A stretch of 64,000 nucleotides of DNA from Escherichia coli. Its GTDB lineage: Bacteria; Pseudomonadota; Gammaproteobacteria; Enterobacterales; Enterobacteriaceae. Location of the stretch: assembly GCF_001677475.2 (NCBI RefSeq), contig NZ_CP015229.1; one strand, 5' to 3'. A program made the position numbers and the translations under genes. This document shows positions 48,074 to 49,696 of the stretch, in pieces. Position 1 is the stretch's first letter. The number at the start of each line of letters is the position of its first letter. Below the pieces are notes generated by a model. That model saw only the letters and a program-made list of their open reading frames with translations. It was not told the origin of the DNA and did not search any database.

Positions 48074-49696
48074 ATGAATACTCTCCCTGATCATTCATGT
48101 GACGTGTTGATTATCGGTAGCGGCGCAGCCGGACTTTCACTGGCGCTGCGCCTGGCTGATCAGCATCAGGTCATCGTTCTAAGTAAAGGCCCGGTAACGG
48201 AAGGTTCAACATTTTATGCCCAGGGCGGTATAGCCGCCGTGTTTGATGAGACTGACAGCATTGACTCGCATGTGGAAGACACATTGATTGCCGGGGCTGG
48301 TATTTGCGATCGCCATGCAGTTGAATTTGTCGCCAGCAATGCACGATCCTGTGTGCAATGGCTAATCGACCAGGGGGTGTTGTTTGATACCCACATTCAA
48401 CCGAATGGCGCAGAAAGCTACCATCTGACCCGTGAAGGTGGACATAGTCACCGTCGAATTCTTCATGCCGCCGACGCCACCGGTAGAGAAGTAGAAACCA
48501 CGCTGGTGAGCAAGGCGCTGAACCATCCGAATATTCGCGTGCTGGAGCGCAGCAACGCGGTTGATCTGATTGTTTCTGACAAAATTGGCCTGCCGGGCAC
48601 GCGACGGGTTGTTGGCGCGTGGGTATGGAACCGAAATAAAGAAACGGTGGAAACCTGCCACGCAAAAGCAGTGGTACTGGCAACCGGCGGTGCGTCGAAG
48701 GTTTATCAGTACACCACCAATCCGGATATTTCTTCTGGCGATGGCATTGCTATGGCGTGGCGCGCAGGCTGCCGGGTTGCCAATCTCGAATTTAATCAGT
48801 TCCACCCTACCGCACTGTATCACCCACAGGCACGAAATTTCCTGTTAACGGAAGCACTGCGCGGCGAAGGTGCTTATCTCAAGCGCCCGGATGGCACGCG
48901 TTTTATGCCCGATTTCGATGAGCGCGGCGAACTGGCCCCGCGCGATATTGTCGCCCGCGCCATTGACCATGAAATGAAACGCCTCGGCGCGGATTGTATG
49001 TTCCTTGATATCAGCCATAAGCCCGCCGATTTTATTCGCCAGCATTTCCCGATGATTTATGAAAAGCTGCTCGGGCTGGGGATTGATCTCACACAAGAAC
49101 CGGTACCGATTGTGCCTGCTGCACACTATACCTGCGGTGGTGTAATGGTTGATGATCATGGGCGTACGGACGTCGAGGGCTTGTATGCCATTGGCGAGGT
49201 GAGTTATACCGGCTTACACGGCGCTAACCGCATGGCCTCGAATTCATTGCTGGAGTGTCTGGTCTATGGCTGGTCGGCGGCAGAAGATATCACCAGACGT
49301 ATGCCTTATGCCCACGGCGTCAGTACGTTACCACCGTGGGATGAAAGCCGCGTTGAGAACCCTGACGAACGGGTAGTAATTCAGCATAACTGGCACGAGC
49401 TACGCCTGTTTATGTGGGATTACGTCGGCATTGTGCGCACAACGAAGCGCCTTGAACGCGCCCTGCGGCGGATAACCATGCTCCAACAAGAAATAGACGA
49501 ATATTACGCCCATTTCCGCGTCTCAAATAATTTGCTGGAGCTGCGTAATCTGGTACAGGTTGCCGAGTTGATTGTTCGCTGTGCAATGATGCGTAAAGAG
49601 AGTCGGGGGTTGCATTTCACGCTGGATTATCCGGAACTGCTCACCCATTCCGGTCCGTCGATCCTTTCCCCCGGCAATCATTACATAAACAGATAA
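48074..49696 (+). CDS. nadB: L-aspartate oxidase
   Basis: 540 aa; FAD-binding motif [15 protein letters not shown]. Confidence 0.93.

Follow-up and report, generated by a model that had tools for sequence, protein, structure and literature searches.

Loss of a spacer as the probable origin of the conserved 16-bp convergent overlap between nadB and trmN6 in Escherichia coli

Introduction

Why do two genes of Escherichia coli share their last codons on opposite strands, and does this sharing amount to regulation? The question is raised by nadB and trmN6, which run tail to tail in a stretch of 64,000 nucleotides from contig NZ_CP015229.1 (the window, by which we mean the whole stretch analysed) and overlap there by 16 bp. 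A sequence-only reading of the window had drawn attention to this overlap, argued that the two mRNAs must overlap at their 3′ ends, and proposed that this allows transcriptional interference or antisense effects. Our analysis indicates that the overlap is real and that it is probably (we put this at about 0.8) a frozen evolutionary by-product of a lost spacer, about as old as the Enterobacteriaceae, with no regulatory coupling needed to explain any of the data.

The overlap is of little importance as it stands: it is an ordinary one that all annotations of E. coli contain, and overlapping transcription of the two genes has already been catalogued. What we add is modest, namely a reconstruction of its origin, a stop codon encoded by the partner gene, and a conserved 9-mer. 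The locus offers what looks like a clean textbook case of the birth of a tail-to-tail overlap, in which a stop codon and a spacer disappear, and of how such an overlap can be locked in place when the conserved Phe-Tyr codons of the partner supply the new stop.

Results and discussion

Two genuine genes share their last 16 bp

The junction comprises the following features.

48074–49696, + strand: nadB, encoding L-aspartate oxidase (540 aa), with stop codon TAA at 49694–49696; supported by the open reading frame (ORF) list, RefSeq, the family model NF006567 and the structure 1CHU
49681–50418, − strand: trmN6 (also yfiC or trmN), encoding the tRNA1Val m6A37 methyltransferase (245 aa), with start codon ATG at 50418 and stop codon TAA at 49683–49681
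49681–49696, both strands: the coding overlap of 16 bp, TTACATAAACAGATAA, read from the ORFs and the sequence

On the + strand, TTACATAAACAGATAA encodes the (H)YINR-stop end of NadB, and on the − strand the (F)YLFM-stop end of TrmN6, whose stop codon appears as TTA at 49681–49683 on the + strand. The third codon positions of the two genes fall together within the overlap. The same 16 bp are shared in the RefSeq annotation (Prokaryotic Genome Annotation Pipeline, PGAP) of E. coli 118UI and of K-12 MG1655, where the locus holds nadB at 18775..20397 (+) and trmN at 20382..21119 (−). The ORF list starts the minus-strand trmN6 frame at an upstream GTG (285 aa); we took the ATG at 50418 as the start, which gives 245 aa (738 nt) in agreement with the RefSeq gene length.

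Such an overlap could be an annotation artefact, with one stop codon mis-assigned and the genes not truly overlapping, and this was what the sequence-only reading had named as its possible refutation. The stop of an ORF, unlike its start, is fixed by the sequence, and both proteins are full-length against curated NCBIfam equivalog models. NadB reaches 1048 bits where NF006567 requires 629, and TrmN6 reaches 424 bits over residues 2–245 where NF047853 requires 350, with the latter profile extending to the last residue. The crystallised NadB chain (PDB 1CHU) likewise has 540 residues and ends in ...HYINR; its last 124 residues are identical to those encoded here, with four differences elsewhere. 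The TrmN6 tail FYLFM is invariant in all but one of the sequences compared (80/81), and nothing hints at programmed frameshifting or readthrough, the only ways in which the protein ends could be altered. Both reading frames are thus bona fide protein genes, as judged by the NCBIfam equivalogs, RefSeq and the solved structures of NadB; mis-assigned stops are excluded, and we give the artefact explanation virtually no chance of being right.

Codons of trmN6 appear to dictate the sequence of the overlap

We scanned one genome per species, which yielded 80 loci from ~20 genera of Enterobacteriaceae with TrmN6 proteins 71–96% identical to that of the window. The overlap is exactly 16 bp long in 76 of the 79 species loci in which nadB adjoins trmN6, and a search of 5426 complete E. 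coli genomes found a 47-nt sequence spanning it in 5406. Across the family, the 16 bp follow the consensus YYA CAT RAA NAR RTA R, which is the reverse complement of the TrmN6 end ...(F)-Y-L-F-M-stop, and the F-Y-L of this tail is retained even in homologues of only 40–55% identity.

The stop codon of nadB is itself built from codons of its neighbour.

49693–49698, − strand: TrmN6 Phe241-Tyr242 codons (TTY TAY); the opposite strand reads RTA RAA here and includes the nadB stop, TAR, at 49694–49696

The complement of three neighbouring bases, the Phe wobble base and positions one and two of the Tyr codon, forms this stop, so either Phe codon produces one, TAA or TAG. Indeed, TAA or TAG stands at this position in all loci with the 16-bp overlap, the choice following the Phe wobble base, and a second + frame is closed likewise by Met-Phe of TrmN6, as TAA or TGA. 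Variation within the overlap either falls at the shared wobble positions or alters NadB while leaving TrmN6 unchanged; for instance, the choice of CTN or TTR for the trmN6 Leu codon gives R or K in NadB. TrmN6 thus sets the sequence of the overlap, with the NadB tail following, and protein-coding constraint on TrmN6 fully accounts for the deep conservation of the 16 bp.

Three loci depart from this length. One (L007) carries a 1-nt deletion in the NadB tail that leaves an 8-bp overlap, and another (L038) an indel that leaves 12 bp. In the third, L036 (positions 3157–3260; recorded as Escherichia sp. ESNIH1), the overlap sequence, CTACATAAAGAGA, is duplicated in tandem, which again leaves 8 bp. 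NadB length in the relatives is 539 or 540 aa, owing to the length of a short linker, and this variation, together with the three variant loci, shows that the NadB tail tolerates change. The duplication in L036 partly separates the two genes and provides a natural example of an overlap partly resolved by duplication.

Some loci stood out for other reasons. In Intestinirhabdus alba (L026:3223–3621), nadB is undetectable beside trmN6; a 132-aa ORF without NadB similarity lies there, followed by rpoE, and this ORF, too, reaches 16 bp into trmN6 and stops at the same point. The arrangement suggests that nadB suffered a large deletion or was replaced. A record named Chryseobacterium sp. 18061 (L040) holds a typical Enterobacteriaceae trmN6–nadB locus with a TrmN6 81% identical to ours, and the assembly is probably mislabelled or contaminated. 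Within E. coli, the window is ~98–98.8% identical to the nearest complete genomes, and the 801 bp at 49300–50100, at the end of nadB and in trmN6, are unusually diverse, with identity to the window ranging from 98.8% down to 94.3% (O157:H7); this suggests that old alleles persist, or that recombination has occurred, at trmN6.

The overlap is derived, probably through loss of a spacer

A search for close homologues of TrmN6 yielded no outgroups, all relatives retrieved being at least 73% identical; outgroup loci were gathered by a representative-protein search with TrmN6 and inspection of the contigs. In a Yersinia-type locus (L086), trmN6 and nadB lie tail to tail with a 70-bp spacer between them (3257–3326), and another relative has a spacer of 119 bp. 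In Hafnia, a transporter gene stands between the two, and in Rosenbergiella and two further relatives nadB is absent from the trmN6 neighbourhood. NadB of Yersinia, of Hafnia and of the relative with the 119-bp spacer ends in ...P-T-I-L-[HQ]-P-stop, which aligns with GPSILSP (residues 527–533) of E. coli NadB; homology of NadB to distant flavoproteins ceases near residue 520. What follows in E. coli is an addition.

49673–49693, + strand: NadB residues 534–540 (GNHYINR), an Enterobacteriaceae-specific C-terminal extension defined by the outgroup alignment

This extension measures 6–7 residues (GNHYINR here, typically L-A-H-I-N-R elsewhere) and consists of 2–3 variable linker codons followed by codons antisense to the TrmN6 tail. 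Since NadB is shorter in these three outgroups, with a spacer or a further gene between it and trmN6, the overlap is derived and not ancestral.

The most parsimonious history that fits these observations is as follows. In the ancestor of the Enterobacteriaceae, trmN6 and nadB would have lain tail to tail with a spacer of ~70–120 bp, and NadB would have stopped after ...P-[ST]-[IV]-L-x-P. A deletion, itself a postulated event, may then have taken out the nadB stop codon together with the spacer, after which NadB translation would have run on through a linker of 2–3 codons and into sequence antisense to the end of trmN6, halting at the first in-frame stop, the TAA or TAG created by the TrmN6 Phe-Tyr codons. 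The overlap could not drift thereafter because TrmN6 FYLFM is under strong purifying selection, which would have locked it, while the last NadB residues, [HY]-[IM]-[NK]-[RK], would track synonymous changes in trmN6. Both transcripts necessarily enter the opposite coding region, where Rho-dependent termination, a collision of polymerases or structures lying within the coding sequence may end them.

Three points weigh against this explanation. An entirely neutral 7-residue extension of NadB might be expected to show more early stops and frameshifts than were seen; only 3 of the 79 loci differ, so weak selection on the NadB tail or on the arrangement may be acting. The ancestral state was reconstructed from three outgroup loci only. 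Finally, synonymous conservation at 49702–49710 and at the GGG codon of Gly225, both described below, points to some constraint on the nucleotides themselves, which would not be expected of a mere by-product of coding.

The overlap belongs to an ordinary class

The length of the overlap calls for no special explanation. All three + frames that enter the trmN6 end are closed, after 8, 16 or 78 nt, so a nadB frame that loses its own stop yields an overlap of this order. The 16-bp length is no greater than expected by chance; it is the conservation that exceeds chance.

Convergent coding overlaps are a known class, with 58 counted in E. coli (Lillo & Krakauer 2007, PMC2174442). As in other short overlaps of this kind (Lillo & Krakauer 2007, PMC2174442; Huvet & Stumpf 2014, PMC4161906), two real genes share their 3′ ends at nadB–trmN6, a stop codon appears to have been lost, and extension to have proceeded up to the next in-frame stop. 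The pair has the phase in which third positions face each other (123:213), which is the commonest among all convergent overlaps, at 47%, but the rarest, at only 18%, among those of at least 5 nt (PMC2174442). Its length exceeds that of the common 4-bp TTAA type, and it differs from ordinary convergent overlaps in that the new nadB stop is made by a conserved dipeptide of the partner and is therefore fixed across a bacterial family. Every feature of the class that we tested was found, and nadB–trmN6 is a member of it.

The window contains three further overlaps of this kind, which the sequence-only reading had listed alongside nadB–trmN6 and which proved equally real.

4355–4363: csiE/hcaT convergent overlap, 9 bp
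34887–34890: mltF/tadA convergent overlap, 4 bp, TTAA, with interlocked stop codons
61925–61928: yfiM/kgtP convergent overlap, 4 bp, TTAA

Coding overlap thus occurs in 4 of the 11 convergent pairs of the window, a highish proportion, although the count is post hoc.

A conserved 9-mer and a candidate stem-loop past the nadB stop

Codon analyses of 77 Enterobacteriaceae sequences, in which we defined conserved runs as nucleotides kept at ≥90%, revealed a constraint in trmN6 just outside the overlap.

49702–49710: CTGGGTCAG on the + strand, CTG ACC CAG on the − strand (TrmN6 Leu237-Thr238-Gln239), 6 nt past the nadB stop
49703–49747, + strand: candidate stem-loop, UGGGUCAG (49703–49710) pairing with CUGGCCCA (49740–49747), 7 nt after the nadB stop

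The codons CTG ACC CAG are used at these three residues in nearly all of the 77 sequences, with normalised codon entropies of 0.13, 0.17 and 0.11 against a trmN6 mean of 0.72. The resulting 9-nt run CTGGGTCAG is the longest conserved run in the trmN6 alignment, where the next longest has 5 nt; in nadB, runs reach at most 8 nt, and every run of that length takes in a Met or Trp codon. Among the 5-nt runs of trmN6, one includes Gly225 (49744–49746), encoded by the rare codon GGG in 74 of the 77 sequences, and this run and the 9-mer are mutually complementary. We found nothing to support either a promoter or a Dcm site (CCTGG) as the cause of the conserved 9-mer, and a scan of 47900–50700 returned no promoter-like sites.

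Folding of 49694–49756 gives the stem-loop as both the minimum free energy (MFE) and the centroid structure, with GCCG paired to UGGU on the inner side in the window, and it is also present in the centroid of a longer fold. We compared 17-codon segments with a codon-shuffle null that preserves the protein and the codon pool of each gene. The segment with the stem-loop is the most over-structured of trmN6: its mean z on the nadB-sense strand is −1.78 (77 species) or −2.24 (25 species), compared with −1.06 and −0.84, respectively, on the − strand, and the other segments range from +0.7 to −1.2. Outgroups without the overlap use different codons at the residues of the 9-mer and the stem. The spacer of L086 holds a hairpin, AGGGCGCA...TGCGCCCT, after which the nadB-sense strand is rich in U; this is a likely nadB terminator in a relative without the overlap.

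Together, these findings raise the possibility that spacer loss moved a 3′-end stem-loop of nadB into trmN6, where 49703–49747 would define or protect the 3′ end of the nadB mRNA and would be kept by selection at synonymous sites. In its favour are the position of the longest conserved run so close to the nadB stop, the near-invariant rare GGG within the complement, the most negative codon-shuffle z of the gene with its bias towards the nadB-sense strand, the predicted fold, the Yersinia hairpin, and the different codons of the outgroups. On the other side, RNAalifold found no consensus structure at this position in an alignment of 81 sequences, and there is little covariation, the one pair with frequent double changes possibly being phylogenetic, so that the support comes from conservation and not from covariation. 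The dinucleotide-shuffle z of the single sequence is only −0.46, and the stem-loop was derived from the same sequences that were later used to assess it. It has no U tract on the + strand and is thus not an intrinsic terminator. The supplements of SMRT-Cappable-seq and of the eLife 2021 E. coli 3′-end map hold no entries for mapped 3′ ends of nadB or yfiC. We regard the proposal as tentative, with the odds clearly against it, and consider it rather unlikely that the predicted stem-loop is a real 3′-end element of nadB embedded in trmN6. Somewhat less likely still, in our view, is that after spacer loss the signals for the end or the protection of the nadB mRNA were rebuilt in trmN6 codons at 49703–49747, the outputs of the two genes possibly being coupled through them.

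An embedded stem-loop is compatible with the by-product explanation, to which it adds one functional element. If true, it would be a small, testable case of 3′-end RNA signals kept at synonymous sites of an opposing gene, in which a tRNA-modification gene carries a 3′ untranslated region (UTR) element of its neighbour within its own codons.

Where the two transcripts may end

Full-length nadB and trmN6 mRNAs must overlap, as had been argued: there is no intergenic DNA, and they are complementary over at least 16 nt. For the same reason, the termination signals of each gene must lie inside the other. A scan for intrinsic terminators returned five weak sites against 2.8 ± 1.7 expected, with none at the junction, and no Rfam family matched at gathering score at or near 49681–49800. 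Folds of the whole region of the locus were not significant (z −0.08 and −0.80). We considered the 49703–49747 stem, followed on the − strand by UUUUUAUCUGUUUAU, together with the U-rich FYLFM codons, as an intrinsic terminator of trmN6. We rejected it, since on that strand the stem is interrupted by a C·A mismatch and its loop is long, and since termination there would precede the trmN6 stop codon.

As with bidirectional terminators and collision-assisted termination (bioRxiv 10.1101/2022.10.23.513370), two converging transcripts have to end in one short stretch, and head-on polymerase collision is a plausible contributor here as well. A bidirectional intrinsic terminator has a G+C-rich hairpin between the genes, preceded by an A tract and followed by a U tract; the nadB–trmN6 junction, unlike such terminators, has no intergenic hairpin with A and U tracts, and any signal would be embedded in coding sequence.

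Two other structures lie further from the junction.

49771–49797, + strand: second hairpin, GCAUUCUCCU...GGGGAGAAUGC, with 10 bp formed as GCATTCTCCT...GGGGAGAATGC, inside trmN6 and without a U tract
49480–49541, − strand: trmN6-sense structured stretch inside nadB, ~140–200 nt past the trmN6 stop, a weak candidate for a 3′ structure

The second hairpin is strong only in Escherichia, Citrobacter and Salmonella, with a codon-shuffle z of ~−1.2 on both strands; with no U tract, and decaying outside these genera, it was rejected as a conserved terminator. On the − strand, the fold of 49465–49545 has −27.8 kcal/mol (z −2.96), and across species the codon-shuffle z of 49480–49541 is −1.44 on this strand compared with −0.26 on the + strand, several G-U pairs rendering the structure strand-specific.

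Transcript overlap is not evidence of regulation

The pair could also be a selected excludon, in which transcription of nadB and trmN6 would be antagonistic through head-on polymerase collision, RNase III cleavage of the duplex, or both. nadB is derepressed at low NAD (nicotinamide adenine dinucleotide). We know of no functional link between NAD synthesis and the m6A37 modification of tRNA1Val, which counts against such antagonism having been selected.

The literature offers some support for an excludon: nadB–yfiC, csiE–hcaT, mltF–tadA and yfiM–kgtP all belong to the 165 convergent pairs of E. coli for which ExcludonFinder reported overlapping transcription (NAR 2025, PMC12288877), where pairs were listed if transcription overlapped in ≥50% of 58 E. 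coli RNA sequencing (RNA-seq) sets, and excludon pairs as a class showed higher synteny (PMC12288877). That list, however, holds exactly the four overlapping convergent pairs of the window and none of the other seven, which suggests that listing is nearly automatic once coding regions overlap and that coding overlap largely decides inclusion. Moreover, capture of double-stranded RNA (dsRNA) with p19 could not validate convergent pairs (PMC12288877). The retention of the arrangement across the family (76/79) likewise speaks for an excludon, as do the additional constraint on synonymous sites and the surplus of RNA structure found immediately beyond the nadB stop; against this, the TrmN6 protein sequence fully explains the conservation of the 16 bp, and related families manage with a spacer or without adjacency.

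Like the excludons of PMC12288877, the pair is convergent, with an unavoidable 3′ overlap of its transcripts, and it is listed by name. Classic excludons have long overlapping UTRs and demonstrated reciprocal expression, whereas nadB–trmN6 is known by its overlap alone and has no known shared function. Of the properties that mark an excludon, transcript overlap is the only one found for this pair, and it comes from the literature (PMC12288877). Our literature search found no paper testing nadB–trmN6 interference, antisense control or reciprocal expression.

We therefore consider a selected excludon improbable, more so than an embedded stem-loop. Of the regulatory proposal of the sequence-only reading, transcript overlap stands, on the strength of the sequence and of PMC12288877; for interference or antisense control, which may occur, we found no data on this particular pair, and the conservation can be explained without it. 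The locus illustrates that neither conservation of an overlap nor listing as an excludon should be taken as evidence of regulation.

Other observations in the window

Five Rfam matches lie elsewhere in the window: AsrC, antisense to rseC, at 44660–45491 (+); the rncO leader at 41663–41877 (−); GlmY at 28707–28854 (−); the antitoxin small RNA OhsC at 38054–38131 (+); and 5S rRNA at 63717–63832 (−). The convergent spacer between srmB and yfiE measures 32 bp in the window (51884–51917) and 208 bp in K-12 (L002:22585–22794), and strain 118UI carries IS1397 after srmB (L001:5085–5273), which marks this spacer as a variable insertion hotspot.

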